A DNA stretch of 64,000 bases. Origin: an uncultured Chloroflexia bacterium (lineage in GTDB: Bacteria; Chloroflexota; Limnocylindria; Limnocylindrales; CSP1-4). The notes below the pieces were generated by a model. The model was given only the letters and a program-made list of their open reading frames with translations. It searched no databases and had not been told where the DNA came from. Shown one piece after another: positions 17,376 to 32,542 of this stretch; the stretch's first letter is position 1; every line of letters begins with the position of its first letter. The translations under genes were made by a program, and so were the position numbers. The stretch covers positions 96,001 through 160,000 of the forward strand of contig CAVTHS010000006.1 of the NCBI GenBank assembly GCA_963734535.1, in the 5' to 3' direction.

Positions 17376-17580
17376 TGGCCCGCCCGGAGAGATCGAAGCA
17401 CCCCGGGGTGGAACGCGGGGGTCGAACTCATCCCGCTCCCGAATCACCGAGACAGCAACCAGGCGACTGGTAAGCATCTCGTGCGCGGTTCTCGACCGGT
17501 CCGCACCCGGGCCTTCGGACCGATTGAGCACGGGTTGCAGGGTCGCCGGGCCGCCGTCGCCCGGCACGGGCAGGACGACG

Positions 17581-17738
17581 CCACGTACCAGCACCGGGGC
17601 GCATATCCCGGAGCAACGGCGGCCCGTGCGCCACGTACCAGCACCGGGGCGCATATCCCGGAGCGATGGCGGCCCGTGCGCCACGTACCAGCACCGGGGC
17701 GCATATCCCGGAGCAAGAGCGGCCCGCGCGCCACGTAC
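17581..17738. repeat. Tandem 50-bp repeat, 3 copies plus a partial
   Basis: CCACGTACCAGCACCGGGGCGCATATCCCGGAGC... at 17581, 17631 and 17681, partial at 17731; internal CCGGG..CCCGG hairpin. Confidence 0.92.
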
Positions 17739-17877: not shown

Positions 17878-19155
17878 ATGTCGCATCCCCTCGTCGTCAT
17901 GAAGTTCGGCGGCTCGTCCGTGGCGAACGCCGATCGGATTCGCCGCGTCGCGCGCCGGATCGCCCGTGCTCGCGCGCACGGTGCCGACCTGTGCATCGTC
18001 GTATCGGCGATGGGCGACACCACGGACGAGCTGCTCGCCCTCGCGGCCGCGATCACGGAGGAGCCCGACGCGCGCGAGCTCGACATGCTCCTCGCCACGG
18101 GCGAGCACCAGAGCGCGACCCTCGTCTCCATGGCGCTCCACGCGCTGGGAGTGGCCGCGATCAGCCTGACCGGCGCGCAGGCCGGGATCACCACGGACGG
18201 TACGTACGGCCGCGCGCGGATCGCCGGGATCGATCCGGCCCGCATCCGCGCCGAGATGGCCGCCGGCCGGGTCGTCATCGTGGCGGGCTTCCAGGGCACG
18301 AGCGCGGCCGCGATGGAGCTCGCCGAGACCACGACGCTCGGGCGGGGAGGCTCGGACACGACCGCGGTCGCGCTCGCCGCGGCGTTGCGCGCCGACCGCT
18401 GCCAGATCTACACGGACGTCAAGGGGATCTACACGGCGGACCCGCGGATCGTGGACGACGCCCGGCAGCTCCCGGTGATCGGCTACGAGGAGATGCTGGA
18501 GCTGGCCCACCAGGGTGCCCAGGTCATGCAGGTCCGGGCCGTCGAGCTCGGATGGGTCAACAACGTCGTCATCGAGGTCCTCAGCTCCTTCGAGGAGGCG
18601 CCCGGGACGTTGATCAGGGAGGACCCGCTCGTGGAGCAACGCAACAAGGTCCGCGGGATCGCCCACGACCGGAACGTCGCGAAGGTCACGCTTGTCGCGG
18701 TGCCCGACCGGCCGGGCGTGGCACGTGCCGTCTTCGCGCCGCTTGCCGAGCAGGGCATCAGCGTCGACATGATCGTCCAGAACGTCGGCCACGGCGGCGC
18801 AACCGACATGAGCTTCACCGTGCCGCGCGGCGAGCTGGCGAAGGCGAAGCGCGTCCTCGAACCGATCGTGCGTGAGCTCGGCTTCCGCGAGATGACCACC
18901 GATGCGTCGATCGCGAAGGTCTCGATCATCGGGGCGGGCCTCCACAACGCCCCGGGGTACGCGGCGCGGATGTTCGGGACGCTTGCCGACGCCGGCGTGA
19001 ACATCGAGATGATCTCCACGTCCGAGGTGCGGATCACGTGCACGATCGCGGAGGACCAGCTCGAAGCCGCCGCGACCGCGCTCCACGCCGCGTTCTCGCT
19101 GGCGGTGCCGGACCCGCTCGATGCCGCCGTCGCCACGCCGGAACCGGCCGGCTGA
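17878..19155 (+). CDS. lysC: Aspartate kinase (alpha subunit)
   Basis: VMKFGGSSV, VSAMGDTTD, TTLGRGGSDTTA, YTDVKGIYTADP, two ACT domains. Confidence 0.97.
   Translation: MSHPLVVMKFGGSSVANADRIRRVARRIARARAHGADLCIVVSAMGDTTDELLALAAAITEEPDARELDMLLATGEHQSATLVSMALHALGVAAISLTGAQAGITTDGTYGRARIAGIDPARIRAEMAAGRVVIVAGFQGTSAAAMELAETTTLGRGGSDTTAVALAAALRADRCQIYTDVKGIYTADPRIVDDARQLPVIGYEEMLELAHQGAQVMQVRAVELGWVNNVVIEVLSSFEEAPGTLIREDPLVEQRNKVRGIAHDRNVAKVTLVAVPDRPGVARAVFAPLAEQGISVDMIVQNVGHGGATDMSFTVPRGELAKAKRVLEPIVRELGFREMTTDASIAKVSIIGAGLHNAPGYAARMFGTLADAGVNIEMISTSEVRITCTIAEDQLEAAATALHAAFSLAVPDPLDAAVATPEPAG
18631..19155 (+). CDS. Nested in-frame aspartate kinase beta subunit (ACT domains)
   Basis: GGAGGA at 18618-18623, 7 nt before in-frame GTG (codon 252) at the kinase/ACT boundary, as in alpha2beta2 aspartokinases. 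Confidence 0.6.
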   Translation: MEQRNKVRGIAHDRNVAKVTLVAVPDRPGVARAVFAPLAEQGISVDMIVQNVGHGGATDMSFTVPRGELAKAKRVLEPIVRELGFREMTTDASIAKVSIIGAGLHNAPGYAARMFGTLADAGVNIEMISTSEVRITCTIAEDQLEAAATALHAAFSLAVPDPLDAAVATPEPAG

Positions 19156-19165
19156 TCGGCAGCCG

Positions 19166-20107
19166 GTGACGCCCTTCATCGCCCGCCAGGAGCGTTTCGC
19201 GCAGGTCGGCTCCACCCAGGACGTGGTCCGCGCGTGGCTCGCCGCTGGCACCCCGGAGGTCTGCCTCGCCGTCGCCGACGAGCAGGCCGCGGGCCGCGGC
19301 CGTTCGGGCCGGACGTGGGTCGCGCCGCCGGGGCGTGCGTTGCTCCTCTCACTCGGGTTTCGCCCGACGTGGCTCGTGCCAGAGCATGCATGGCGGCTGG
19401 CCGCGACGGTGAGCCTGGCGATGGCCGACGCGGCCGAGGATGCCGCCGGGCTCCGCGATCGGGCGATCCGCCTCAAGTGGCCGAACGACCTCGTCGTCGA
19501 GGAGGATGCGCCCGGGGAGGCGGGGACCGGGTTCGGAGGGGGCGCCGTGCGCAAGCTCGGCGGCGTCCTCGGCGAGACCGATGGACTCGGGACGGCCGCG
19601 CCACAGGTCGTGGTCGGGATCGGGATCAACGCCGACTGGGCTGCCGGCGAATTCCCACCCGCCCTCGCGGAGATCATGACGAGCCTGCGCGAGGCGTCGG
19701 GCGGCCGGCCGATCAGCCTCGCCATCCTGCTCGACGGCTTCCTCTCTCGCCTCGAGGCGCGCGTCGAGGCGCTCCGGGCGGGCCGCTTCGACGTCGGCGA
19801 CTGGGTGGCCAGGCAGCTCACCACGGGCCGTCTCGTGCGGCTGGAGGGGCACGGGCCGGTCGCGGAGGAGCGGCTGGCAGTCGGCGTGGACCCGGCGACG
19901 GGAGCCCTCCTCGTCGCGGACGACGCGGCGCCGGGCGGGGAGCGCGCGGTCCACGCCGGCGAGGTCACCCGTATCCGGCTGGCAGGCCCGGCGAGTCCGG
20001 GGACCGGGGCACCGCCGCCGGGTGTCGAGCGGCCATCCGCGGCCGGCGCGACGCGATCGACCCCCGCGGCCGGCGCGACGCGATCGACCCCCGCGGCCGG
20101 CGCGTAA
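19166..20107 (+). CDS. birA: Biotin--[acetyl-CoA-carboxylase] ligase (no HTH domain)
   Basis: VGSTQD, ADEQAAGRGRSGRTW, LKWPNDL, KLGGVL, VGIGIN, AGEV. Confidence 0.93.
   Translation: MTPFIARQERFAQVGSTQDVVRAWLAAGTPEVCLAVADEQAAGRGRSGRTWVAPPGRALLLSLGFRPTWLVPEHAWRLAATVSLAMADAAEDAAGLRDRAIRLKWPNDLVVEEDAPGEAGTGFGGGAVRKLGGVLGETDGLGTAAPQVVVGIGINADWAAGEFPPALAEIMTSLREASGGRPISLAILLDGFLSRLEARVEALRAGRFDVGDWVARQLTTGRLVRLEGHGPVAEERLAVGVDPATGALLVADDAAPGGERAVHAGEVTRIRLAGPASPGTGAPPPGVERPSAAGATRSTPAAGATRSTPAAGA
20037..20104 (+). repeat. 27-bp coding tandem repeat at the birA C-terminus (AAGATRSTP)
   Basis: CCGCGGCCGGCGCGACGCGATCGACCC, about 2.5 copies. Confidence 0.8.
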
Positions 20108-20130
20108 CGGACGGGTGGGCGCGGTGTTGG
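20104..20130 (+). promoter_or_regulatory. Candidate ECF-type autoregulatory promoter
   Basis: GTAAC (20104-20108), a 17-nt spacer, then GTTGG (20126-20130), just upstream of in-frame GTG 20136 of the ECF gene. Confidence 0.4.
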
Positions 20131-20135
20131 GACGG

Positions 20136-20801
20136 GTGAGGGAACGCGGAACGCTCCGCAGCTCCGGGCGGGTGGTGCCGCTCGACCAGGACCGGGCGCT
20201 CGTGCGAGCCGCCCAGGCCGACCCGCTGCAGTTCGACCCGCTCTACCGGAAGTACCTCGCCCAGGTCTACAACCTTGCCTATCACGAGCTCGGTGATCAT
20301 CACGAGGCGGAGGACGTGACGGAACGCACGTTCATGCTCGCCCTCGGCGGGCTGCCGCGATTCCGGGAGACCGCGCCCGACGACGCGGGCCCGGAGGCAT
20401 CGACGTTCCGCATCTGGCTCTTCCGAATCGCCCGGAACGTCGTCGCGAACCATCGCCGCACCGTGCGACGTCGGCCGACGGCGCCGCTCGAGGCCGCCGC
20501 TGGCGTGGCCGCACCGGACGACGTGGAGGGCGGCGCCATCGCCCGGTCCGAGGCATCGGCCGCGTGGGCGGCGGTGCGCCGGCTGCCGGGTGACCGGCGG
20601 CGTGCCGTGGTGCTCCGCTTCGTCGATGACCTGAGCACCGCCGAGATCGCCGGGATCCTCGAGCGTTCCGAGGGCGCGGTCCGGGTGCTGCTCCACCGCG
20701 CGCTGCGAAGCGTGGCACGCGAGCTCTCGCGCGACGACGATCGCGGACGCTCGGGCCACGGCCGGGGCCGCGACCGGGGCAGCCAGCGAGGCTCCCAGTG
20801 A
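20136..20801 (+). CDS. ECF-family RNA polymerase sigma factor
   Basis: Region 2 FDPLYRKY..EAEDVT..FRIWLFRIARN; region 4 LPGDRRRAVVLRFVDDLSTAEIAGILERSEGAVRVLLHRA. Start uncertain (20124-20175). Confidence 0.92.
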   Translation: MRERGTLRSSGRVVPLDQDRALVRAAQADPLQFDPLYRKYLAQVYNLAYHELGDHHEAEDVTERTFMLALGGLPRFRETAPDDAGPEASTFRIWLFRIARNVVANHRRTVRRRPTAPLEAAAGVAAPDDVEGGAIARSEASAAWAAVRRLPGDRRRAVVLRFVDDLSTAEIAGILERSEGAVRVLLHRALRSVARELSRDDDRGRSGHGRGRDRGSQRGSQ

Positions 20802-21553
20802 TCCTCCAGCCGGCGAACCTCGACGCGATGGAGGTCGAGGCGCTCCAGACGGACCGCTACCTCGACGCGCTCCTGGCCGCCGTCGAGCGGCGAGCCCTCG
20901 ACGCGCCGGCCGACGCCGCCGTCGACCCGACCCTGCGCCGGGCGGCGCGGCGCCTGCGCGACGAGCTGGTCCGCACCCACCCGTCGTTTCGCTTCGAGGA
21001 GCGGCTCGCGCGCCGGCTCGCGGACGCTGCGGTGCGGATGCGCCTGGCGACCGCCGCCGGCGGGGAGGCCGAGGCGGCACTGATCCCGTTCCCGACCCCG
21101 CTGCTGGCCGACCCGACGCTCGCCGCCGAGCTGGCGAACCCCGAGCTGGCTGCGCTCCTGGGTTTGGGTGACGCTGCTGCCGAGTCGAGCACGGAGGCCC
21201 CGGTGGACTCCCGGGTCGCAGTGCCCGGTCGCCCGTCCGCCACTGCGCCGGCGGAGGGGCCTGCCGGGCTCGCCGCGCCGCTCCGCCCCGTCGTGACGCG
21301 GCCGCTGCTCGTCGGCGGTGCGCTGACCTCCGCCGCGCTCTCCCTTGCCGGCGCCGCCTTCGTGGCGTGGCGGCTGACGCGCGGCGCGCCGGCGGACCCG
21401 ATGGCACGCGCAGTGCGCGCGACGCGCGCAGCCCGCGAGGCCGCGGCGGTGACAACGAGCCGCTTGACGGCGGTCGCCACCTCGGCCACGACGCGCCCCG
21501 TGACGGCCCGGCGCGCCGGGAACGCCGGCCCCCGGCGCCGGGGGCCTGGCTGA
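20798..21553 (+). CDS. Putative membrane-anchored anti-sigma factor
   Basis: GTGA overlap with the ECF gene; N-terminal helical domain (LDALL...HPSFRFEERLARRL) and one TM segment (LLVGGALTSAALSLAGAAFVAW). Confidence 0.55.
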   Translation: MILQPANLDAMEVEALQTDRYLDALLAAVERRALDAPADAAVDPTLRRAARRLRDELVRTHPSFRFEERLARRLADAAVRMRLATAAGGEAEAALIPFPTPLLADPTLAAELANPELAALLGLGDAAAESSTEAPVDSRVAVPGRPSATAPAEGPAGLAAPLRPVVTRPLLVGGALTSAALSLAGAAFVAWRLTRGAPADPMARAVRATRAAREAAAVTTSRLTAVATSATTRPVTARRAGNAGPRRRGPG

Positions 21554-22419
21554 TGCCGCTCACGCTTCCGTTCCGCCCGCGCCGCGAGACCTACCCGCCG
21601 GACATGTGGACCAAGTGCCCCAGCTGCTCGGAGATGCTCTTCAACAAGCACCTCGAGAAGAACCTGCGCGTCTGCGGCACGTGTGGCCATCATTTCCGGA
21701 TCTCCGCGAAGGCGCGCCTCGACCAGCTGCTGGACCCGGGGACGTTCCGCGAGCGCGACGAGGGGCTCGCCTCGCGCGATCCGCTCGGCTTCGTCGATTC
21801 GAAGCCCTACGCGGACCGCCTCGTCGCGGCCCAGCTGGCGACCGGGCGCCGCGACGCCGCGAGCTGGGGATTCGGCGCGATCGGCGGCAGGCGTGTCGCG
21901 ATCTGCGCGCTCGACTTCGGCTTCATGGGCGGCTCGATGGGCTCGGTCGTCGGCGAGAAGGTGACGCGCGCGGCGGAGGGCGCGTTCGTCGAGCGGGTGG
22001 CGCTCATCGTGGTCAGCGCCTCCGGCGGCGCCCGGATGCAGGAAGGGACGCTGGCCCTCATGCAGCTGGTCAAGACGATCGGCGCGCTGGAGCGGCTCCG
22101 CGCCGCCGGGCTGCCCTACATCTCCGTGCTCGCCGACCCCACCACCGGCGGCGTCTTCGCCTCGTTCGCCGCGCTCGGCGATGTCAACGTGGCCGAGCCG
22201 AAGGCCCTCATCGGCTTCGCCGGCGCCCGGGTCTCGGCCGGCACGATCGCGGAGGAGCTGCCGCCCGGCTTCCAGCGTTCCGAGTTCCTGTTCAGCCACG
22301 GGTTCGTGGACCGGATCGTCACCCGCGCGGACCTCCGCGACGAGCTCGCCCTGCTCCTGGCCCTGCTCGGACCCGCCGGCGCGACCGACGCCACGTCCGG
22401 GGGTGTGCGGCGTGGTTGA
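21553..22419 (+). CDS. accD: Acetyl-CoA carboxylase carboxyltransferase beta subunit
   Basis: WTKCPSC..CGTC zinc finger, FMGGSMGSVVGEK, SGGARMQEG, PTTGGV, FQRSEFL. Confidence 0.97.
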   Translation: MPLTLPFRPRRETYPPDMWTKCPSCSEMLFNKHLEKNLRVCGTCGHHFRISAKARLDQLLDPGTFRERDEGLASRDPLGFVDSKPYADRLVAAQLATGRRDAASWGFGAIGGRRVAICALDFGFMGGSMGSVVGEKVTRAAEGAFVERVALIVVSASGGARMQEGTLALMQLVKTIGALERLRAAGLPYISVLADPTTGGVFASFAALGDVNVAEPKALIGFAGARVSAGTIAEELPPGFQRSEFLFSHGFVDRIVTRADLRDELALLLALLGPAGATDATSGGVRRG

Positions 22420-23524
22420 CCGGCTGCTCGGGCGCCCGCGAGACCGCGAGACGGTGCCCGCTTCCCCGCCGCCCGGGATCGATCCCCGCGACGCCGTGTG
22501 GGCCCGTGTCCAGCTGGCCCGGAACCCGCGCCGGCCGCACACCCTGGAGCTGGTCGGCCACATCACCGATGCCTTCGTGGAGCTCCACGGCGACCGGCTC
22601 TACGGCGACGACGGGGCGATGGTGGGGGGCCCGGCCCGGATCGACGGCCGCCGGGTCATGATCGTCGGTCACCAGAAGGGCGCCGACACCGATGAGAACA
22701 TCCGGCGCAACTTCGGGATGAGCAAGCCCGAGGGCTTCCGCAAGGCGATCCGCCTGTTCGAGCTGGCGGAGCGGCTGGGCCTGCCCGTCGTCACGTTCGT
22801 CGACACCCCGGGCGCCTACCCGGGAGCCGAGGCGGAGGAGCGCGGGGTCGCCGATGCGATCGCCCGCTCGATCGGCGCGATGACGCGGCTCCGAGTCCCG
22901 ATCGTCACCCTCATCACGGGCGAGGGCGGGTCGGGCGGCGCGCTCGCGATCGCCGCCGGGGACGTGGTGGTGGCCCTCGAGAACGCCGTCTACGCGGTGA
23001 TCAGCCCGGAAGGGTGTGCCTCGATCCTCTGGCGAACGGCCGAGAAGGCGCCGGACGCCGCCCTCGCCATGCGGATGTCGGCCCAGGACCAGGCGGAGCT
23101 GGGCGTCGTCGACCGCGTCGTGCCCGAGCCCGGCGAGGGTGCGCACGTCGACGCGGCCGAGACCGGGAGGCGGCTGCGCGCGGTCATCCTCGAGGAGCTC
23201 GACAAGCTGGCGGTGCTCACGCCCGACGAGCTCGTCGCGAAGCGTGGCGGTCGCTATCGCGCATTCGGCGCGTTCGACGACCTCGGCATCAGCGAGCCGG
23301 GCGGCGGCGGGGCAGAGCGCCCGGGCCTCGCCGACCGCCTGCGCAGGGCGCTGGAGCCGGTGGGCAAGTCGGTGGGCGATGCCCTGGGCGGCCGGACCGG
23401 CCGCGAGGCCCGGGACGCGCGGAACACCCTCGACGGGCGTGAGCCTCGCGAGAGCCGCGACGCACGCGAGACCCGCGAGGGTCGCGATGGGCGTGACGAG
23501 CCGCCCGCGCGCGAGGAGGTGTGA
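22412..23524 (+). CDS. accA: Acetyl-CoA carboxylase carboxyltransferase alpha subunit, with C-terminal extension
   Basis: ARNPRRP, ELHGDR..DD, RNFGM..PEGFRKA, DTPGAYPG, GEGGSGGALA, VISPEGCASILW. Confidence 0.97.
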   Translation: MVDRLLGRPRDRETVPASPPPGIDPRDAVWARVQLARNPRRPHTLELVGHITDAFVELHGDRLYGDDGAMVGGPARIDGRRVMIVGHQKGADTDENIRRNFGMSKPEGFRKAIRLFELAERLGLPVVTFVDTPGAYPGAEAEERGVADAIARSIGAMTRLRVPIVTLITGEGGSGGALAIAAGDVVVALENAVYAVISPEGCASILWRTAEKAPDAALAMRMSAQDQAELGVVDRVVPEPGEGAHVDAAETGRRLRAVILEELDKLAVLTPDELVAKRGGRYRAFGAFDDLGISEPGGGGAERPGLADRLRRALEPVGKSVGDALGGRTGREARDARNTLDGREPRESRDARETREGRDGRDEPPAREEV

Positions 23525-24311
23525 GCGTGCCCAACGACCGCCGCAGCCCGGCCCCGCGCCGCGTGCAGGACCGGCTGGACGATCACGCCGCGATCGACCA
23601 GCTCTCGGACGAGCTGCTCCCCGCTCTCGTCGCCAAGCTTGGGGCGAGCGGCCTCGGGGAGATCGAGATCCGCGAGGGCACGTGGCGGGTCCGGCTCCGG
23701 ATGCCGGCCGACGGGCTCGCCGTGGCCGGCCGCCGTCCAGGTCCCGGTCGCGGGGGATCGCGTGCAGGCGACGGCTCGCACGTGGAACACGTCCGCGCCG
23801 ATGCCTCCGGGCCCGCCGGGACGGTGACCGTGGCGGGTTCGCAGGGACCCGCGACCGAGCCCGCGTCCGAGGTCGGTCCGTCGCGGGTCGTGGCCACGTC
23901 GCCGGCCGTGGGCTATTTCCGGCCCCGGAACGACCTCCGCGCCGGAACGAAGGTCCGGGCGGGCGACCGCATCGGGAGCGTTGACGTGCTCGGCATCGGC
24001 CAGGACCTCGTGGCGCCCGGCGACGGGCTGATCGGCGCGACGCTCGTGGCGCCCGGCGAGCCCGTCGAGTATGGCCAGGCGATCATCGTCCTCGAGCAGC
24101 TCGGGGAGCCGCGGTCACAGCCCGGGCACGCGGCGGACGCCGGCGGCGCGATCGACGCACCGGCACGGCGGACGCCGGCGGCGCGTTCGACGACACCGGC
24201 GCGGCCGCCCGGAGGGTCGCGCCCGACCCGCTCCCCGCCGATCCGGACGTCCCGCCGCCGGCCGCGCCAGACGGGGCCCCCGACGCGGCCCCGCCCAGCG
24301 GTGGTGCCTGA
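23521..24311 (+). CDS. BCCP-like protein lacking the biotinylated lysine; probable indel in its low-complexity tail
   Basis: BCCP N-terminal motif (LVAKLGASGLGEIEIREGTWRVRL) and biotinyl-fold (TSPAVGYF..GTKVRAGDRIGSV-DVLGI-..VAPGEPVEYGQAII), with EAMKM replaced by DVLGI. TGA at 24309-24311 overlaps the accC ATG but is out of frame as given. Confidence 0.8.
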
Positions 24312-25675
24312 TGTTCGACCGCGTCCTCATCGCCAACCGCGGCGAGATCGCCGTCCGGATCCTGCGCGCCTGCCGGACCATGGGCATCGGGGCGGTCGTC
24401 GCGTACAGCGAGGCCGATCGCGACTCGCTGGCCGCCCAGCTTGCCGACGAGGCCATCTGCATCGGTCCCGCCGACGCGAAGCGGAGCTACCTCTCGCCAT
24501 CGGCGATCATCTCGGCCGCGATCGTGACGGGTTGCGACGCGATCCATCCCGGCTACGGCTTCCTGTCCGAGGATGGCGGGTTCGCCGAGGCGGTCGCCGC
24601 GCATGGGCTCACCTTCATCGGCCCGTCCGCCGAGGTCCTCGAGCGGTTCGCCTCGAAGGAGGCCTCGCGCAGCCTCATGGCCCGCCACGGGCTCCCCACG
24701 ATCCCCGGATCGGAGGGGATGCTCCGCGACGACGAGCACGCCCTGTCCGAGGCGGCGCGCGTCGGGTACCCGGTCCTCATCAAGCCGTCCGCCGGCGGCG
24801 GCGGCAAGGGGATGCGCATGGTGCGCACGCCGCGCGAGCTGGAGGCGTCGCTCCGCGTGTGCCGCTCCGAGGCCCGCGCCGCGTTCGGCGACGACTCGCT
24901 GTACCTGGAGAAGTGGCTGGAGGACAACCGCCACGTCGAGGTCCAGGTGGTCGTGGACCGCTACGGCCGCGGCGTCCACCTGGGCGAGCGCGACTGCTCG
25001 GTCCAGCGGCGCCACCAGAAGATCGTGGAGGAGGCGCCAACCCCCGCCCTGCCGCCGGCATCTCGCGCCGAGCTCTGCGACCGGGCGATCGCCGCCGTCG
25101 TGGCGGCCGGCTACGAGAACATCGGGACGCTCGAGTTCCTGGTCGACCGGGACGAGCGCTTCTACTTCATCGAGATCAACTGCCGGATCCAGGTGGAGCA
25201 CCCCGTCACCGAGATGCTCACCGGGATCGACATGGTCGCGACGCAGATCCGGATCGCGGCCGGCGAGCCGCTCGGCTTCGGCCAGGAGGACGTGGAGATC
25301 CGCGGCCACGCCTTCGAGTTCCGGATCAACGCCGAGGACCCGGTCCACGACTTCCGCCCCCAGGCCGGGCTCGTGGAGCGCTTCTACGCGCCGGGCGGCC
25401 CGGGCGTTCGCCTCGACTCGCACCTCTACGCGGGCTACGAGGTTCCCCCGTTCTACGACTCGCTCCTCGGCAAGCTCGTCGTCTGGGGGCCCGACCGGCC
25501 GGCCGCGATCGCCCGCTCCAAGGCCGCCCTGGACGAGCTGGTCGTGGACGGCATCGTGACCAACCGCTCGTTCCACCGCGCGCTCCTGGAGAACGCCGCG
25601 TTCGTCGAGGGCCGGGTCACCACGAACCTCATCGACCGCGTCGGGACGGCGGCGTTCCTCGCCCCGCGGAGCTGA
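24311..25675 (+). CDS. accC: Biotin carboxylase
   Basis: LIANRGEIA, HPGYGFLSE, GGGGKGMR, ERDCSVQRRHQK, EINCRIQVEHPVTE, RINAED. Confidence 0.97.
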   Translation: MFDRVLIANRGEIAVRILRACRTMGIGAVVAYSEADRDSLAAQLADEAICIGPADAKRSYLSPSAIISAAIVTGCDAIHPGYGFLSEDGGFAEAVAAHGLTFIGPSAEVLERFASKEASRSLMARHGLPTIPGSEGMLRDDEHALSEAARVGYPVLIKPSAGGGGKGMRMVRTPRELEASLRVCRSEARAAFGDDSLYLEKWLEDNRHVEVQVVVDRYGRGVHLGERDCSVQRRHQKIVEEAPTPALPPASRAELCDRAIAAVVAAGYENIGTLEFLVDRDERFYFIEINCRIQVEHPVTEMLTGIDMVATQIRIAAGEPLGFGQEDVEIRGHAFEFRINAEDPVHDFRPQAGLVERFYAPGGPGVRLDSHLYAGYEVPPFYDSLLGKLVVWGPDRPAAIARSKAALDELVVDGIVTNRSFHRALLENAAFVEGRVTTNLIDRVGTAAFLAPRS

Positions 25676-25759
25676 GGCGACCCGTGCATGCCTGCATCCA
25701 TCCACCCGCTCGGCGCGCGATCGCCGGGCGACACTGAGCCCGACGAAGCGGAGTCCCAC

Positions 25760-26215
25760 GTGACCGAAGCCATCCACACCACGCGCGAGATCGAGGCGCT
25801 GATCCCGCATCGCTGGCCGTTCCTGCTGGTCGACCGGATCGACGAGTACGACGCGGACGCCCACCAGATCGTCGGCCGCAAGGCCGTGACCGCCACCGAG
25901 TGGTTCTTCCAGGGCCACTTCCCGGGGATGCCGGTCATGCCCGGCGTGCTCCAGGTGGAGGCGCTCGCGCAGACGATGGCCGTCTACGTGGCGAAGCAGG
26001 AGGGCTTCGGGGACAAGATCGGGCTGTTCGCGGGCGTCGACGAGTGCCGCTTCAAGCGGGTCGTCAAGCCGGGCGACGTCCTGCGCCTCGAGGTCACGAT
26101 GGACAAGCTCGGCCGGCGCTTCGGGCGCGGACGCGCCGTCGCGAGCGTGGACGGCGAGGTCTGCTGCGAGGCCACCCTGAGCTTCGTCATCCCCGACGCG
26201 TCCGTGCTCCGCTGA
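25760..26215 (+). CDS. fabZ: 3-hydroxyacyl-ACP dehydratase
   Basis: IPHRWPFLLVDR, FFQGHFPGMPVMPGVLQVEALAQ, FKRVVKPGD. Confidence 0.96.
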   Translation: MTEAIHTTREIEALIPHRWPFLLVDRIDEYDADAHQIVGRKAVTATEWFFQGHFPGMPVMPGVLQVEALAQTMAVYVAKQEGFGDKIGLFAGVDECRFKRVVKPGDVLRLEVTMDKLGRRFGRGRAVASVDGEVCCEATLSFVIPDASVLR

Positions 26216-26961
26216 TGACGCGGCTCGCGCTCTTCTCGGACCTCCACGGCGTCGCGCAGGCGCTCGACGCGGTGCGTGCGGCAATCGCCGCCGCGGCGCC
26301 CGACGTCATCGCGGTCGCCGGCGACTACGCGGTCAACGGCGCGGACCCCGCGGCCGTCATCGACGGCATCCGCGAGCTCGAGTCGCGCGGTGCGCTCGTC
26401 GTGGCCGGTAACACGGACATCGCGGTGGCCGACTTCGACTACGGCGCCGCCTACCCGTGGCTCGGCGACGGAATCCCGGAGTCGACCCGCTCCGCCGTGG
26501 AATGGGCCCACGAGGCGATCGGCCCGCAGCGCGTCGACTGGCTGCGCCGCCTTCCCGCGGAGCGGCGCTTCCGCGCCGACGACGGGACGCTGGTCCTCGT
26601 GACGCACGCGTCGCCGGGCAGCCAGACCGCGGGCTTCGACCGCGGCCTCGACGAGAGCGTCTTCATGGAGCGCCTTGGCCGGACCGACGCGCGGGTGATC
26701 TGCTGCGGCCACACCCACGTCCCGGAGGTCCGCGACTTCGGCTGGAAGGTGGTCGTCAACGGGGGGAGCGCGGGTTACGTCTTCGACGGCGACCCGACCG
26801 CCTCCTGGGCGCTCGTCGACATCGTGGACGGCGAGATCACGGCCGAGATCAAGCGCGTCCCGTTCGACGTGCTCGCGGCGGCCGACGCGGTCGCCGCGCG
26901 CGGCCTCCCCGGGGACGTCTACCGCGCGGCCACGATCCGGAACGGGAAGCTGGTGCGGTGA
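26215..26961 (+). CDS. Calcineurin-like metallophosphoesterase
   Basis: SDLHG, AGD, AGNTD, THASP, CGHTH, NGGSAG. Confidence 0.88.
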   Translation: MTRLALFSDLHGVAQALDAVRAAIAAAAPDVIAVAGDYAVNGADPAAVIDGIRELESRGALVVAGNTDIAVADFDYGAAYPWLGDGIPESTRSAVEWAHEAIGPQRVDWLRRLPAERRFRADDGTLVLVTHASPGSQTAGFDRGLDESVFMERLGRTDARVICCGHTHVPEVRDFGWKVVVNGGSAGYVFDGDPTASWALVDIVDGEITAEIKRVPFDVLAAADAVAARGLPGDVYRAATIRNGKLVR

Positions 26962-28251
26962 GCGTCGCGAGGCCGGGCGGGCAGCTCACCACGGCGGACG
27001 GCGCGCCACGGGTCGTCGTGACCGGCACCGGCATGCTGACCGCGCTCGGGGCGGACGTCGCGAGCACCTGGGCCGGCCTCGTCGCCGGCCGGTCCGGGAT
27101 CGCCACGATCACGGCGTTCGACCCGGCCCGGGTCTCGTCGCGGATCGCCGGCGAGGTGCCCGGCTTCGACCCGTCCGGGGTGCTCGACCGCAAGGAGCAG
27201 CGCCGAAACGACCGCTACACGCAGCTCGCGCTCGTGGCGGCACGCGAGGCGCTCGACGAGGCCGGCCTTCCCGGCCGCCTGGAGGGCGACGCTTGCGGAG
27301 CGGACCGGGATCCTGATCGGCACCGGCCTTGGTGGCGGGATCACGTTCGGCGAGCAGGTCGCGGTCAGCATCGAGAAGGGCGCGGACCGGGTCAGCCCGT
27401 TCTTCGTCCCGATGGCGATCCCGAACCTGGCAGCGGGCCAGGCGGCCATCTTCTTCGGTGCGCTGGGGCCCAACTACGCGATCGCGTCGGCCTGCGCGAG
27501 CGGCGGCCACGCGGTCGGCGAGGCCTGGGAGATCATCCGGCGCGGCGACGCGGACATGATGCTGGCAGGGTCCGCGGAGGCGGTGATCTCGGAGCCGCTC
27601 GTGGCGGGCTTCGCGGCGATGCGCGCGCTCTCCACGCGCAACGACGACCCGGCCGCGGCCTCGCGCCCGTTCGATCGCGGCCGTGACGGCTTCGTGATCG
27701 GGGAGGGGGCCGGGGTGCTGGTCCTCGAGACGCTCGCCCACGCGCGCGGCCGCGGGGCGCAGCCGCTCGGCGAGGTGGTCGGCTATGGCGCCACGGCGGA
27801 CGCGAGCCACGTCACGCTCCCCGCGCCGGGCGGCGTCGGCGCCATTCGCGCGGTCCGGCGGGCACTGGAGAAGGCGCGCCTCACGGTCGACGATGTCGAG
27901 CACGTCAACGCGCACGCGACCTCGACGCCCGAGGGCGACCGGACCGAGCTGGAGATGCTCCGCGGCCTGTTCGGCCCCAGGGCCGGCGAGGTCAACGTGA
28001 CCGCGATCAAGTCGATGATCGGCCACACGCTCGGGGCGGCCGGCTCGATCGAGGCGATCGTCACGCTCCGCACGCTGCGCGAGGGCGTGGTTCCGCCCAC
28101 GATCAACCTCCACGATCCCGACGAGGCGGCCGCGGGCCTCGACCTGACGCCGAACGTCGCCCGCGAACGGCGGATGAAGATCGCGGTCAGCAACTCGTTC
28201 GGCTTCGGCGGGCAGAACAGCGCGCTCGTGCTGCGGCGGTGGGACGAATGA
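26958..28251 (+). CDS. fabF: 3-oxoacyl-ACP synthase II (one frameshift near 27290)
   Basis: RVVVTG.G N-terminus in one frame. ASACASG (catalytic Cys), RPFDRGRDGFVIGEG, NAHATST, KSMIGHTLGAAG and SNSFGFGG in the next frame. Confidence 0.93.
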
Positions 28252-28948
28252 CGGATCCACCGGCCGAGGGCACCGGCGGCGTGCCCGGCCCGGCGATCGA
28301 ACCCGCGACCCCGACGGTCGACGCATCCGTCCTCGGCGCCGATTCCGCGGCCGGCGCCATGCCGGGGGGCGCCGTCGTTCCCGCCGCCGGCGAATCGCTC
28401 TCCGGCGACGCCGTCGGCGACGCGTCCCTCCTCGCGCTCCTTGACCGACTCGCCGGGCTGCTCGAGCGGAGCGACCTCACCGAGCTCGAGGTCGAGGCGG
28501 GTGGCACGGGCCTGACCCTTCGCAAGTCCGCCGCCCTCGCGCCGTTGGCGACGGTCGCCACGGCCGGGCAGCCGGCCGGTTCGGGGCAGCGATCGGACGC
28601 TGCCGCCGGGACGGCCCGGGCCGCCGTCGGTTCATCGGGCAGCTCCAATGCCGCGTCCGGTTCGTCGGAACCCGGCGTCGCCTCGTGCCGCCCGCTGCAG
28701 CCACATCCGTGCTCGCCGTCCGCGCGCCGCTCACCGGGATCTTCTACGCGTCGCCCGGGCCGGGGTCGCCGCCGTTCGTCGCGGTCGGTCGCGAGGTCGT
28801 GGTCGGCCAGGTGATCGGGCTCATCGAGGCGATGAAGCTCTTCAACGAGATCAAGTCGGACCAGGCCGGCCAGGTGGTGCGGGTCATCGCGGAGGATGGT
28901 GCGCTGGTGAAGGCGAAGCAGCCGCTCATCGAGGTCGTGCCGCTGTGA
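28248..28948 (+). CDS. accB: Biotin carboxyl carrier protein, canonical (frameshift in the linker near 28660-28710)
   Basis: LERSDLTELEVEAGG N-domain; RAPLTGIFYASPGPGSPPFV (thumb) and IEAMKLFNEIKSD with Lys at 28835-28837. Confidence 0.9.
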
Positions 28949-30453
28949 ACGCCGGTGTCGCCGGCGGGCCTGCGTCCGCTGCTCTCCCGGGAGCCACCGG
29001 CCCAGCGTCTGCAGCCGGCATGCCCCGCCATGCCCGGATCACCGGCTGGGGCTCCTACGCGCCGACGGCCGTGCTCACGAACGCCGACCTCGAGCGGATC
29101 GTCGAGACCTCCGACGAGTGGATCGTCAGCCGGACCGGCATCCGCGAGCGGCGCGTCGCGGCCGCGCACGAGACCACCGCCAGCATGGCCGCCGTCGCCG
29201 GCGCCCGCGCGATCGCCGTCGCGGGCCTCGACCCCGACGAGATCGACCTGATCCTCGTCGCCACGTTGACGCCGGACTACTGGATGCCATCCACCGCCGC
29301 GCTCGTCAAGGAGGCGATCGGGAACTCCAGGGCGGCCGCGATGGACGTGTCCGCGGCCTGCTCCGGCTTCGTCTACGCGTACGCCACGGCGAGCGCATAC
29401 GTGACGTCGGGGATGGCGCGCCACGTGCTGGTCATCGGCGCGGAGCTTCTCACCCGCTTCCTCGACTACACCGACCGCAGCACCTGCATCCTCTTCGGCG
29501 ACGGCGCGGGCGCGGTGGTGGTCTCGGCCTCCGAGGAAGCGGCCGTCCCGCACGGGATCGAGATGACGACCGACCCGTCCGGCGCCTACATGATCTGGCT
29601 CCCGGCCGGCGGCTCGAAGAGCCCGCCCTCGGCGGCGACGATCGGCCGCGGTGAGCACTTCATCCGGATGGAGGGGAAGGAGACCTACCGCTTCGCGACG
29701 AAGACGCTCGCCTCGACTGCGCTCGCCGCGATCGCGAAGGCGGGGCTGCGCCCGGACCAGATCGACCTGTTCATCCCGCACCAGGCGAACATCCGGATCA
29801 TCGAGGCCGTGGCCAAGGGCCTCGGGCTCCCGATGGAGAAGATGTTCGTCAACCTCGACCGCTACGGGAACACCTCTGCGGCGTCCGTCCCGCTCGCACT
29901 CGCCGAGGCGGTCGACGCGGGGCGGATCCGGAAGGGCGACAACGTCGTGATCGTCGCGTTCGGTGCCGGCTTCACGTCAGGCGCGGTTGCGTTCGAATGG
30001 ACCGCCGACCCCGCGGCCGGCGCACGCGCCGCATCCGTCCGGCCCGAATCGATCCACGTGCGGCTTCCCGTCGACTGGGATTCGGTGGATCCCATCCCGG
30101 CCCAGCTCGCTGCCGTCCTCGCCGCACCCGGCCCGGTGGCCGTCCCGCTCGACGACGTCGTCCCGGGCGATCCGCCGGCGCGGCCGGCCGCCACCCGGGC
30201 GTCCACGGTCGTGCCCGCCACCGCGCCCTCGGCCCCGACTGCGTCCGAGCCCTCGGCCCCGACGCCGTCCGCGCCCTCGGCCCCTGAGCCGCCCGCGCCC
30301 TCGGCCCCTGAGCCGCCCGCGCCCTCGGCCCCTGAGCCGCCCGCGCCCTCGGCCCCTGAGCCGCCCGCGCCAGCACCCGTTCCCGCCACGGCGCCCGAGC
30401 CAGCACCCGTTCCCGCCACGGCGCCTGCGTCCGCCTCGGAGGTTCCCTCATGA
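28945..30453 (+). CDS. fabH: 3-oxoacyl-ACP synthase III, with a long C-terminal extension
   Basis: TSDEWIVSRTGIRERR, AACSGF, LFGDGAGA, PHQANIRII, GNTSAAS, FGAG. Confidence 0.95.
   Translation: MNAGVAGGPASAALPGATGPASAAGMPRHARITGWGSYAPTAVLTNADLERIVETSDEWIVSRTGIRERRVAAAHETTASMAAVAGARAIAVAGLDPDEIDLILVATLTPDYWMPSTAALVKEAIGNSRAAAMDVSAACSGFVYAYATASAYVTSGMARHVLVIGAELLTRFLDYTDRSTCILFGDGAGAVVVSASEEAAVPHGIEMTTDPSGAYMIWLPAGGSKSPPSAATIGRGEHFIRMEGKETYRFATKTLASTALAAIAKAGLRPDQIDLFIPHQANIRIIEAVAKGLGLPMEKMFVNLDRYGNTSAASVPLALAEAVDAGRIRKGDNVVIVAFGAGFTSGAVAFEWTADPAAGARAASVRPESIHVRLPVDWDSVDPIPAQLAAVLAAPGPVAVPLDDVVPGDPPARPAATRASTVVPATAPSAPTASEPSAPTPSAPSAPEPPAPSAPEPPAPSAPEPPAPSAPEPPAPAPVPATAPEPAPVPATAPASASEVPS
30271..30426 (+). 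repeat. Coding tandem repeats in the FabH tail (24 bp x4; 30-bp period x2)
   Basis: GCGCCCTCGGCCCCTGAGCCGCCC x4 (APSAPEPP), then CCAGCACCCGTTCCCGCCACGGCGCC x2. Confidence 0.9.
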
Positions 30454-31199
30454 TCGATCTCACCGGCAAGGTCGCCATCGTCACCGGTGGCTCGCGCGGC
30501 ATCGGCCGGGCGGTGGCGCTCATGCTCGGCCGGCAGGGCGCCGACGTCGCGTTCCTCGACCGGCTGGCCTGCACCGTCGAGGACCACACGCGCGAGGACG
30601 TCGAGGCGCTCGGCCGGCGCTCGGTCTGCATCGGCGGCGACGTGACGGACCCGGCGGCGTGCACCGAGCTCGTCAGCGAGGCGCTCAAGGAGCTCGGCCG
30701 GGTCGACATCCTGGTCAACAACGCCGGCATCACCCGCGACGACCTGATCATGCGGATGACCGACGAGGCGTGGCATGACGTCCTGAACGTCAACCTCACC
30801 GGCGCGTTCAACATGACCCGGGCGGTCCTGCGACCGATGATCAAGGCCCGCTCCGGGCGGATCATCAACATGTCGAGCGTCTCGGGGCAGATGGGCAACG
30901 CCGGCCAGGCCAACTACTCCGCGTCGAAGGCCGGCCTGATCGGCCTCACGAAGGCGACCGCCCGCGAGGTCGCCTCACGCGGCATCACCGTCAACGCGGT
31001 TGCGCCCGGTTTCGTCATCACCGAGCTCACGGACGGCCTGCCCGACACCGTCAAGGACGCCATCAAGGCCGCCACGCCGCTGGGGCGCTTCGCCTCGGTG
31101 GACGAGATCGCCGCGGCCGTCGCGTTCCTCGCCTCCGACGAGGCCGGCTACATCACCGGCCAGGTCCTCGGCGTCGACGGCGGCCTCGCGATGATGTAG
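30450..31199 (+). CDS. fabG: 3-oxoacyl-ACP reductase
   Basis: TGGSRGIG, NNAGITRDDL, NYSASK, GQVLGVDGG. Confidence 0.96.
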   Translation: MIDLTGKVAIVTGGSRGIGRAVALMLGRQGADVAFLDRLACTVEDHTREDVEALGRRSVCIGGDVTDPAACTELVSEALKELGRVDILVNNAGITRDDLIMRMTDEAWHDVLNVNLTGAFNMTRAVLRPMIKARSGRIINMSSVSGQMGNAGQANYSASKAGLIGLTKATAREVASRGITVNAVAPGFVITELTDGLPDTVKDAIKAATPLGRFASVDEIAAAVAFLASDEAGYITGQVLGVDGGLAMM

Positions 31200-31217: not shown

Positions 31218-31482
31218 GCCGCCACGCCGTTCGGTCGCCACGTCGCCGCGTCTCTCGGTCGCCTCTCCGCCGCGCCGCCACGTCTCTCGGCCGCCACTCC
31301 GCTGTGTCTTTCGGCCGCCACGTCGTTCGGCCGCCACTCCGCTGTGTCTTTCGGCCGCCACGTCGTTCGGCCGCCACTCCGCTGTGTCTTTCGGCCGCCA
31401 CGTCGTTCGGCCGCCACTCCGCTGTGTCTTTCGGCCGCCACGTTGTTCGGCCGCCACTCCGCTGTGTCTTTCGGTCGCCACT
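31218..31482. repeat. Tandem 40-bp repeat array (about 4.75 near-exact copies plus a degenerate lead-in)
   Basis: CCGCCACTCCGCTGTGTCTTTCGGCCGCCACGTCGTTCGG at 31291, 31331, 31371 and 31411, partial at 31451. The core TCGGYCGCCAC recurs from about 31218. Confidence 0.95.
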
Positions 31483-31552: not shown

Positions 31553-32542
31553 CTAACCCGGACCCTCCGCGCGCCGCGACGTCGGAACCGCCCCGGACGG
31601 GCCGTGGGACGCCCAATTTCCTCGCTGTTGCCTTCCCTGGGCCGCATTCGCGAGGATCCGTCGCGCCCGCACCCGTTTCGTCGGCCCGAGACGCGGGTTA
31701 GTGATTCCTGGGCCCGCATTGGCGAGGAAAGCCAGCCCGCGGACCGCCCGGCTGACCGCCGCGCCCTCCGCCCGGCTGACCGCCGCGCCCTCCGCCCGGC
31801 TGACCGCCGCGCCCTCCGCCCGGCTGACCGCCGCGCCCTCCGCCCGGCTGACCGCCCCGGCGCCCGCCACCGCCGCCGCGCCCGCCGCCGACCCGACCTC
31901 AGCAGTCCCCGCACCTCCCGGGTCGCGAAGCCACCGCCGCAGCGTGCGGCCGTCGAGCGGGAACGCGTTGCGGAGCATGGTCCGGTGTCGCGCCAGCTGT
32001 CGCCGGTTCATGTCCGACTCCGCGAGCAGCACCCATGTCGCGACCGACGTTGCGTCCCAGCCTCGCTCCCGGCCGATCTGCGGCGCAAGACGTCGATACC
32101 GGTCGACCTGCGCGATCGTGCCGGCCGGGTCGGGGATCTCCGTCTTCAGCTCGACCACGAGCAGGACGCGCCGCGCCGCATGCCAGGCGAGGATGTCGAT
32201 CACCCCGCGCTCGCCCCAGGACGAGAACGAGACCTCCGTCGCGAACTCCCAGCCCGGCGTGCTCGCAAGATGCGCCGCGAACAGCTCGTGCAGGCGCGAA
32301 TGCCGCTCATTGACGATGCGCGCCACCTCGCCGCCCCGCCAGGTGGGCACGATCTCGATCCCGACCTCGAGCACGCCGGCAATCGCTCGCAGGCGCCCGG
32401 TCGAGACATCGCGCACCTGGCCGCGTTCGGTCCGCGAGACCCACGACCGGTCGACGCCGGCGGCAGCCGCGACGTCCTCCTGTCGAAGTCGGCGCCGAAT
32501 CCGGATCGCCCGCAGGAGCGCGCCAAGGCGCTGGTCGTCCAT
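31553..32542 (-). CDS. XRE-family HTH fused to a PD-(D/E)xK nuclease-like domain
   Basis: HTH_3 LRAIRIRRRLRQEDVAAAAGVDRSWVSRTERG; nuclease-like motifs E..(TEVSF)..IDILA..VELK..AQVDRY. Confidence 0.82.
   Translation of the reverse strand: MDDQRLGALLRAIRIRRRLRQEDVAAAAGVDRSWVSRTERGQVRDVSTGRLRAIAGVLEVGIEIVPTWRGGEVARIVNERHSRLHELFAAHLASTPGWEFATEVSFSSWGERGVIDILAWHAARRVLLVVELKTEIPDPAGTIAQVDRYRRLAPQIGRERGWDATSVATWVLLAESDMNRRQLARHRTMLRNAFPLDGRTLRRWLRDPGGAGTAEVGSAAGAAAVAGAGAVSRAEGAAVSRAEGAAVSRAEGAAVSRAEGAAVSRAVRGLAFLANAGPGITNPRLGPTKRVRARRILANAAQGRQQRGNWASHGPSGAVPTSRRAEGPG
31744..31858 (-). repeat. 24-bp coding repeat (AVSRAEGA, about 4.5 copies) within the XRE-nuclease gene
   Basis: CCGCCCGGCTGACCGCCGCGCCCT repeated in tandem. 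Confidence 0.9.

Follow-up and report, generated by a model that had tools for sequence, protein, structure and literature searches.

The stretch of DNA analysed here, hereafter the window, comprises 64,000 nucleotides of the forward strand of contig CAVTHS010000006.1 (GCA_963734535.1; contig positions 96,001 to 160,000); unless another locus or contig is named, positions are counted from the first letter of the window. It belongs to a metagenome-assembled genome (MAG) of 3.2 Mb in 14 contigs, rated 90% complete with 7% contamination, from a soil or freshwater bacterium of the class Limnocylindria (Chloroflexota). Between 19.1 and 31.2 kb the window carries a fatty-acid synthesis cluster, in a stretch with 73-76% G+C, in the order birA, an extracytoplasmic function (ECF)-type sigma factor gene, an open reading frame (ORF), accD, accA, a gene encoding a homologue of BCCP (biotin carboxyl carrier protein, or AccB), accC, fabZ, a metallophosphoesterase gene, fabF, a canonical accB, fabH and fabG. 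The acc genes encode the heteromeric acetyl-CoA carboxylase (ACC), which is described in textbooks as an enzyme of four subunits. It catalyses the step that commits bacteria and plastids to fatty-acid synthesis, and interest in it as a target extends from antibiotics and herbicides to the improvement of oil yield. A first-pass annotation of this DNA had pointed out that the BCCP homologue encoded between accA and accC lacks the lysine on which biotin is normally attached, and had proposed that it acts as a non-catalytic ACC subunit comparable to the BADC proteins of plants. The analysis presented here partly confirms this observation and partly supports its interpretation.

The position of the gene is as first described, with accA (PF03255) upstream and accC (TIGR00514) downstream, and its product, referred to below as the lysine-less protein, retains the overall architecture of a BCCP. 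In an AlphaFold2 (AF2) model computed with the family alignment as input, a helix (residues 15-43) and two strands (46-51 and 54-59) form the alpha/beta/beta motif of the BCCP N-domain, which contains the invariant stretch LPALVAKLGASGLGE..E..W..RLRMP; a disordered linker and a biotinyl-type beta-sandwich domain, marked by the motifs PAVG, DVLG and PVEYGQ, follow. The best Foldseek matches of the model in the PDB, 2ejf_C included, are BCCP biotinyl domains, namely 1bdo (template modelling score, TM, 0.81), that of the Pyrococcus horikoshii BCCP (0.84-0.90) and 4hr7, the target TM ranging from 0.81 to 0.90. The N-terminal motif and biotinyl fold recognised in the first-pass annotation are therefore both found in the model. 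Compared with the BCCP/AccB families (TIGR00531, PF00364), the protein possesses the flattened beta-barrel fold as well as the N-terminal alpha/beta/beta motif with its disordered linker, and fails on the biotinyl-lysine, the thumb loop and the curated score, PF00364 giving no hit at E 0.01.

At the attachment site, codons 23980-24000 encode V-D-V-L-G-I-G, and BCCPs have E-A-M-K-M at the matching site. When a profile of 24 family members was aligned with the E. coli BCCP (4hr7_B, E 5.6e-11, alignment from BCCP residue 35), Gly158 fell on Lys122, in agreement with the glycine-for-lysine replacement initially read from the codons. The thumb loop is missing as well, the protein being shorter by six residues (1+1+4) than the E. 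coli BCCP in this region, and also shorter there than the AccB encoded in the window itself. No A-M-K occurs in the other two frames at the motif and D-V-L-G is kept in 120/120 best homologues (50-91% identity), so that an insertion or deletion does not explain the loss of the lysine, as had already been argued. Moreover, no conserved Lys was found among the invariant columns of residues 120-195 in an alignment of 24 diverse members; with none at the attachment site either, BirA would therefore be unable to load the protein. Judged from its sequence, the lysine-less protein can neither be biotinylated at the canonical site nor carry a carboxyl group.

A profile search over 1.84 billion cluster representatives recovered 133 clusters at E<=1e-30 and 430 at E<=1e-10. 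In the best 150 representatives the site is never occupied by Lys; it has the form [DEN]-x-L-G-x in 142 of them, the other 8 being fragments or misaligned. The gene was detected in 181 of the 201 Limnocylindria genomes that are at least 80% complete (E<=1e-12) and in 119 of the 127 high-quality ones, these counts including five unpublished genomes (G127, G136, G162, G107 and G140); 19 of the 20 genomes without a match belong to one family whose hits hover near this threshold. The median ratio of nonsynonymous to synonymous substitutions (dN/dS; 135 pairs, 17 loci), a Nei-Gojobori estimate that in such a very G+C-rich genome is usable as a between-gene comparison only, reaches 0.115 in the N-domain and 0.205 in the C-domain, against 0.124 for accC and 0.166 for accA. 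Long invariant stretches are present in both folded parts of the 24 aligned members. Orthologues bearing the M-K pair or relaxed selection, named in the first-pass annotation as evidence against its reading, did not appear among the 150 representatives and in the dN/dS values, respectively. These data indicate, at the level of sequence, that the gene is under purifying selection and is no decaying copy.

The order accD-accA-X-accC, X being the lysine-less gene, recurs in every Limnocylindria locus long enough to contain all four genes, and birA lies upstream of accD in most of these loci. The end of X is at, or a few bases from, the start of accC, except in six loci of one subclade (L041, L032, L034, L044, L049 and L057) where the two genes stand about 1 kb apart. 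A canonical accB with the EAMK motif is present in 33/33 Limnocylindria loci with at least 5.3 kb of downstream sequence (of 45 loci from a public genome collection), so that the coexistence of a lysine-less BCCP paralogue with a canonical AccB, first seen in the window, holds for all of them. In the window, the biotinyl domain of the canonical accB, with EAMKLF and a thumb, is encoded at 28685-28948, about 4 kb downstream of the lysine-less gene as originally noted. The source genome encodes this AccB as its one free-standing lysine-bearing BCCP, together with one acyl-CoA carboxylase on another contig in which a biotin carboxylase (BC) is fused to a BCCP; no further biotinyl domain was found in this genome at phmmer E<=0.01.

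Two side observations concern these neighbourhoods. The gap in L041 (5495-6454), the one gap annotated, contains fabD (PF00698), and the six loci of this subclade also lack the metallophosphoesterase gene that follows fabZ in most relatives. The fused BC-BCCP alpha subunit of the source genome (contig C10, 290137-294356) adjoins a carboxyltransferase, as in acyl-CoA carboxylases of the propionyl- or methylcrotonyl-CoA type.

The reading frame of the lysine-less gene required some attention. The BCCP-like protein can be read in frame 1 from GTG 23521, and its likely start is GTG 23527, located 7 nt past a GAGGAGG sequence (23513-19), relatives beginning with MPND. With this start the gene abuts accA (stop 23522-24) without overlapping it, whereas its own stop codon TGA (24309-24311) overlaps the ATG of accC by one base; of the two overlaps initially reported, only that with accC stands. 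The interval 23521-24311 measures 791 nt, no multiple of 3, frame 1 being open to 25737 and the TGA lying in another frame. Its first description overlooked a one-base insertion or deletion, placed between 24128 and 24170 by comparison with relatives, whose tails match the frame-0 tail of the window. This break is confined to the variable, disordered tail behind the folded domain, inside a low-complexity repeat, and leaves the lysine site untouched. Relative to intact orthologues, the frame switches once in the tail of the lysine-less gene, once in fabF and once in the canonical accB, all within 5 kb, and the orthologues of the lysine-less gene are intact in other assemblies. Because of the similar breaks in fabF and accB, the tail break is read as an assembly error, and all three are likely consensus or assembly indels of the kind met in long-read MAGs, which would leave the gene calls of the source genome fragmented or fused. 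A search for longer proteins, as candidate natural fusions of the lysine-less protein, gave 11 matches, all singletons joined to AccC or AccA parts, and these were rejected as frame-shifted gene calls resembling the open frame of the window. A search of the ESM Atlas returned only Chloroflexota clusters without names.

Modelling of the complex with AccC, suggested in the first-pass annotation, gave a positive result. With residues 1-200 of the lysine-less protein, the interface score ipSAE reached 0.80 (median of 3 runs), against 0.00 for the best of three controls. In the calibration of the tool, the mark applied is reached by 116/157 solved complexes and by 2/215 mismatched pairs, counts that apply here only approximately since the present model was run on alignments made for this analysis. 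The runs share at least 54% of their contacts, with a predicted local distance difference test (pLDDT) of at least 60 for the partner. The confident contacts of the lysine-less protein (residues 129-132, 156-157, 159 and 181-186) coincide with the invariant PAVG, DVLG and PVEYGQ motifs, and those of AccC involve residues 34, 49-53, 59, 64-65, 67-69, 71-73 and 98 of its N-terminal domain. The location of this interface on invariant motifs gives added weight to the modelled association, and the prediction supports a binding of the lysine-less protein to AccC.

The gene is not the single oddity that it first appeared to be, as it represents one branch of a large family of thumb-less paralogues spread over several phyla, some members of which bear the lysine. 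This family is defined here by the thumb deletion, a C-terminal V-E-[YF]-G-Q strand, a canonical BCCP encoded elsewhere in the genome and, in several phyla, a location upstream of accC, all of which were found for the lysine-less protein. In further phyla, the related-locus search retrieved BCCP-like genes without lysine or thumb that immediately precede accC, the site reading T/F-A-L-G in Armatimonadota, E-A-V-S in Eremiobacterota-like genomes, E-T-M-G in an Actinomycetota MAG and D-S-M-R in one further MAG. Five such genomes (Armatimonadota, Eremiobacterota-like and the Actinomycetota MAG) also encode a canonical BCCP with thumb and EAMK elsewhere, away from accC. A profile of nine non-Limnocylindria proteins found the lysine in 0/120 best hits, the site being occupied by R, S, G or H. 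Public sources label the family members “biotin carboxyl carrier protein” or “biotin/lipoyl-containing protein”.

The nine-protein profile is matched at E<=1e-22 by 70 of 121 Armatimonadota genomes. Inspection of 20 of these matches revealed 15 without the lysine and five with it, accC being located a few hundred bases downstream in 19; a second, canonical BCCP was present in 10/10 Armatimonadota genomes checked (five lysine-keeping and five lysine-less). The five lysine-keepers (L120, L125, L127, L128 and L129) carry E-S-M-K or E-S-L-K, are thumb-less and accC-linked, and could represent either intermediates or an additional functional carrier. In a Fimbriimonadaceae locus (L058), the lysine-less gene and accC are separated by an ORF of 133 aa (5231-5632) that has a hydrophobic N-terminus and matches no Pfam family, and gaps of 300-700 bp precede accC in other Armatimonadota loci too. 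Over the whole of Chloroflexota, 85/151 genomes match at E<=1e-16, and the best 30 loci comprise 27 lysine-less and three canonical copies, the Limnocylindria locus alone being surrounded by acc genes. BCCP-like genes lacking lysine and thumb are thus common in the other Chloroflexota classes (L158-L187 except L184), with the motifs E-A-L-N, E-V-L-N, E-T-L-G, D-T-L-D and others.

The short N-terminal motif of the non-Limnocylindria members was missed by jackhmmer, and the trees were therefore built on the C-terminal domain only, with 72 columns from which those of the thumb and motif had been removed; many of the loci had been found via the family's own peptide pattern. The lysine-less copies form one clade, with a Shimodaira-Hasegawa-like approximate likelihood ratio test (SH-aLRT) support of 98.9 in a set of 28 rows, and an ultrafast bootstrap (UFBoot) of 98 and SH-aLRT of 97.5 in a set of 21 rows. 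After addition of the Armatimonadota sample, the 40 thumb-less rows remain one clade (SH-aLRT 89) in which the five lysine-keepers are nested, parsimony requiring at least two changes of the lysine state; in this tree the canonical copies from these phyla group in a clade of their own (SH-aLRT 95). An approximately unbiased (AU) test did not reject a tree joining the lysine-less and canonical copies of Limnocylindria (p 0.137), and an independent duplication inside this class is possible; the best trees place all lysine-less copies in one clade. Our reading of these sequence comparisons is that the thumb-less paralogue arose early and that its lysine may have disappeared from most lineages on more than one occasion, a repeated loss from which a selected function without need for biotin would follow.

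The coordinates of the features of the cluster are collected in Table 1. Some boundaries are approximate: the start of accD is uncertain, homology beginning at about residue 71 of the ORF, and that of accA was set at 22400, where the alignments of relatives begin, its stop being TGA. The TIGR00121 match covers residues 26-268 of BirA. Several side observations were made around these genes. Between birA and accD (20022-21553) lie the ECF-type sigma factor gene (Sigma70_r2, r4_2) and then a 251-aa ORF without Pfam match; an ECF sigma factor is reportedly involved in the control of fatty-acid synthesis in Pseudomonas. FabH is extended at its C-terminus by about 130 Pro- and Ala-rich residues, encoded at 30221-30425 by 24-nt and 30-nt tandem repeats (PAPSAPEP units), the 24-nt repeat spanning 30221-30371. 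Other near-perfect tandem repeats are found upstream of an aspartokinase gene (50 nt, 3.2 copies, 17579-17738) and downstream of fabG (40 nt, 5.2 copies, 31274-31481; 24 nt, 4.7 copies, 31744-31856). From about 32000 onward, in the second half of the window, the G+C fraction drops from about 0.73-0.76 to 0.65-0.69, in a bin for which the contamination rating was given above.

Table 1. Position of the lysine-less BCCP paralogue, of its parts and of the neighbouring genes in the window
Feature	Position	Strand	Evidence
birA (biotin-protein ligase without N-terminal DNA-binding part)	19121..20107	+	TIGR00121, 102.5 bits vs cut-off 83.1; PF03099
accD (carboxyltransferase beta, Zn ribbon)	21367..22419	+	TIGR00515, 353.7 bits; PF17848
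accA (carboxyltransferase alpha)	22400..23524	+	PF03255, E 1.6e-111; NF004344, 374.5 bits
Lysine-less, thumb-less BCCP paralogue	23521..24311	+	TIGR00531, 30.7 bits vs cut-off 115.2; no Pfam hit at E 0.01
N-terminal helix and beta-hairpin, residues 15-60 (alpha/beta/beta motif of BCCP N-domain)	23563..23700	+	AF2 model
Disordered linker, Gly/Pro/Ala/Arg-rich, residues 63-117	23707..23871	+	pLDDT <50; variable in alignment
Biotinyl-type beta-sandwich domain lacking lysine and thumb, residues 120-195	23878..24105	+	pLDDT ~95
GGC codon, Gly158 in the place of the biotinyl-lysine	23992..23994	+	Codon reading; profile alignment
35-nt tandem repeat, 2.1 copies, low-complexity tail with frame break inside	24131..24205	+	Repeat scan; comparison with relatives
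accC (biotin carboxylase; predicted partner)	24311..25675	+	TIGR00514, 633.9 bits; complex model
fabZ	25688..26215	+	PF07977, E 9.7e-33
Metallophosphoesterase gene	26200..26961	+	PF12850; synteny
fabF	26964..28251	+	PF00109 and PF02801 on two pieces; frame break ~27270-27290
Canonical accB (N-domain, linker, biotinyl domain with thumb and EAMKLF)	28239..28948	+	PF00364 match; linker frame break ~28655-28715
fabH	29041..30453	+	PF08541, PF08545
fabG	30450..31199	+	PF13561

We propose, with somewhat more confidence than doubt, that this biotin-less BCCP paralogue, made together with AccC, is a non-catalytic subunit of ACC that binds AccC. It would probably constitute a fifth subunit of the enzyme, without catalytic role and much like plant BADC. 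According to the model, the biotinyl-like domain would dock on the AccC N-terminal domain, using the face (PAVG, DVLG and PVEYGQ) on which biotin is normally presented. A cryo-EM preprint on the E. coli enzyme places BCCP at a non-catalytic BC site, as in 4HR7, and models the BCCP N-termini as a beta-barrel hub at the centre of the ACC tube (PMC11160672). By analogy, the docking of the lysine-less protein could resemble that of an E. coli BCCP parked at the non-catalytic BC site, and its N-terminal motif may enter the oligomerisation hub formed by the AccB N-termini. The two jobs of the one E. coli BCCP could in this manner be split, the lysine-less copy anchoring and the canonical AccB of the fab cluster carrying. 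As to the net effect, we lean towards assembly (“glue”) over competition, because of the start-stop overlap with accC and the constant presence of the gene.

A broader proposal, which we put forward tentatively and hold to be rather doubtful, is that in several phyla (Chloroflexota, Armatimonadota, Eremiobacterota-like and others) an ancient thumb-less BCCP paralogue, from which the lysine was lost repeatedly, serves as an obligatory fifth ACC subunit. It would sit permanently on the non-catalytic BC site and in the N-terminal hub, organising the assembly in which the true carrier swings, the plant BADC proteins being a later re-invention or possibly descendants.

Several points weigh against the proposed role. 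Five of the 20 inspected Armatimonadota copies keep the lysine, so that the paralogue may have started out as a functional carrier. In the other Chloroflexota classes, no acc gene lies within about 1.5 kb of 26 lysine-less relatives among the best 30 loci, so that the role of the family is perhaps not tied to ACC everywhere. BC-BCCP complexes have been solved (4HR7, 8UXZ and others), and the success of the complex model may reflect likeness or recall; furthermore, no confident contact was made by the N-terminal motif in this model. Finally, the tail of the lysine-less gene contains the frame break described above, and a real frameshift in this strain is possible.

Among the other explanations considered, the one that best withstands the data, unlikely as we judge it, is a negative regulator or decoy competing with holo-AccB on AccC or in the N-terminal hub and thereby throttling fatty-acid synthesis. 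Such a decoy would draw on the evidence already given for the proposed subunit, namely the fold, the lack of the lysine and the modelled docking of the biotin-presenting face on AccC, and BADC is portrayed as an inhibitor displacing BCCP in papers that cite Salie et al. 2016 (PMC11926652, 10.1101/634550). However, the overlap of the stop codon with the start of accC and the presence of the gene throughout the class fit a constitutive partner better than a conditional brake, and the modelled contact lies on the AccC N-terminal domain, at residues that we could not tie to the active site. A decoy of BirA acting on a repressor is disfavoured as well, as this BirA appears to lack the N-terminal DNA-binding part.

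The protein could alternatively serve FabD or other fatty-acid synthesis enzymes as a docking adaptor, or act as a binding module outside ACC. The presence of fabD between the lysine-less gene and accC in one Limnocylindria subclade (L041) and the location of the relatives from other Chloroflexota classes away from acc genes would be in line with this explanation, which is nevertheless improbable in view of the constant neighbourhood of accC in Limnocylindria, Armatimonadota and Eremiobacterota-like genomes and of the retention of the full BCCP architecture, N-terminal motif included. Even less credible is a regulator of gene expression that would have kept only the N-terminal repressor role reported for E. 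coli AccB on the accBC operon. The N-terminal motif is indeed the most conserved part of the protein, by its dN/dS and its invariant columns, and the AccB N-terminus is discussed as an expression regulator in the cryo-EM preprint (PMC11160672), but a purely N-terminal function would require neither the purifying selection that acts on the C-terminal domain as well nor the invariant motifs on the surface of this domain, and no DNA- or RNA-binding feature was found in the lysine-less protein. A decaying accB duplicate or a sequencing artefact, to which the tail frame break and the weak match to BCCP models might point, can be practically dismissed given the conserved D-V-L-G, the motifs invariant in 24 diverse members, a dN/dS similar to those of accC and accA, the class-wide presence with intact orthologues and a lysine loss extending across in-frame codons.

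To our knowledge, non-biotinylated BCCP look-alikes have been discussed for plants only, where their role as brake or glue is disputed. Our full-text literature searches, which left supplementary files outside their scope, found no description of a bacterial lysine-less BCCP, in line with the first-pass annotation, which knew of no characterised bacterial equivalent. If the proposed role is correct, a conserved bacterial counterpart would offer a simpler system for determining what such subunits do, being operon-encoded and easily expressed with its partners. It would also imply that the structural and carrier jobs of BCCP are divisible between paralogues, and would correct a widespread annotation error, the family being labelled as working biotin carboxyl carrier proteins.

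Several known systems share features with the lysine-less protein. With AccB/BCCP (TIGR00531; E. coli 1BDO, 4HR7) it has in common the alpha/beta/beta motif, the disordered linker, the C-terminal beta-sandwich and the location directly upstream of accC; xVGxF and PVE[YF] strands are common to the E. coli protein and the lysine-less one, the linker of the BCCP being Pro/Ala-rich. It differs from AccB/BCCP by the glycine replacing the biotinyl-lysine, the six missing thumb residues and a score far below the cut-off (Table 1). In another member of the Chloroflexota, Chloroflexus aurantiacus, the ACC comprises a fused BC-BCCP (BC1) in which the BCCP beta-barrel ties two BC dimers (PMC11077971). 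This system is comparable through an unusual BCCP arrangement and a structural role of BCCP, but its BCCP is fused to BC and biotinylated on Lys553 (PMC11077971), whereas the lysine-less protein is free-standing. The actinobacterial AccE/PccE are also described as small non-catalytic “glue” subunits that hold the holoenzyme together and activate it (PMC11926652). The lysine-less protein would resemble them as a small, non-catalytic, holoenzyme-holding subunit. AccE/PccE are however not known to be related in fold or to be BCCP homologues, and act on a carboxyltransferase/alpha-subunit enzyme and not on the four-subunit ACC.

The closest likeness is with BADC of plants and algae (Arabidopsis BADC1-3). 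Plant BADC is presented as a non-biotinylated BCCP homologue that binds BCCP and BC and either helps BC-BCCP assembly, as a “glue”, or inhibits (PMC11926652, PMC11889953), Shivaiah et al. being cited for the promotion of assembly and Salie et al. for competition (PMC11926652, 10.1101/634550). Like BADC, the lysine-less protein is a BCCP homologue without biotinylation motif or biotinyl-lysine, coexisting with a true BCCP and a heteromeric ACC, and an origin independent of BADC is at least as likely as shared descent. From its sequence context and the complex model, we infer that this real and conserved feature is a bacterial, operon-encoded counterpart of the BADC-type pseudo-carriers, distinguished from them by its bacterial host, its location inside an acc operon next to accC and its membership of a multi-phylum thumb-less family.

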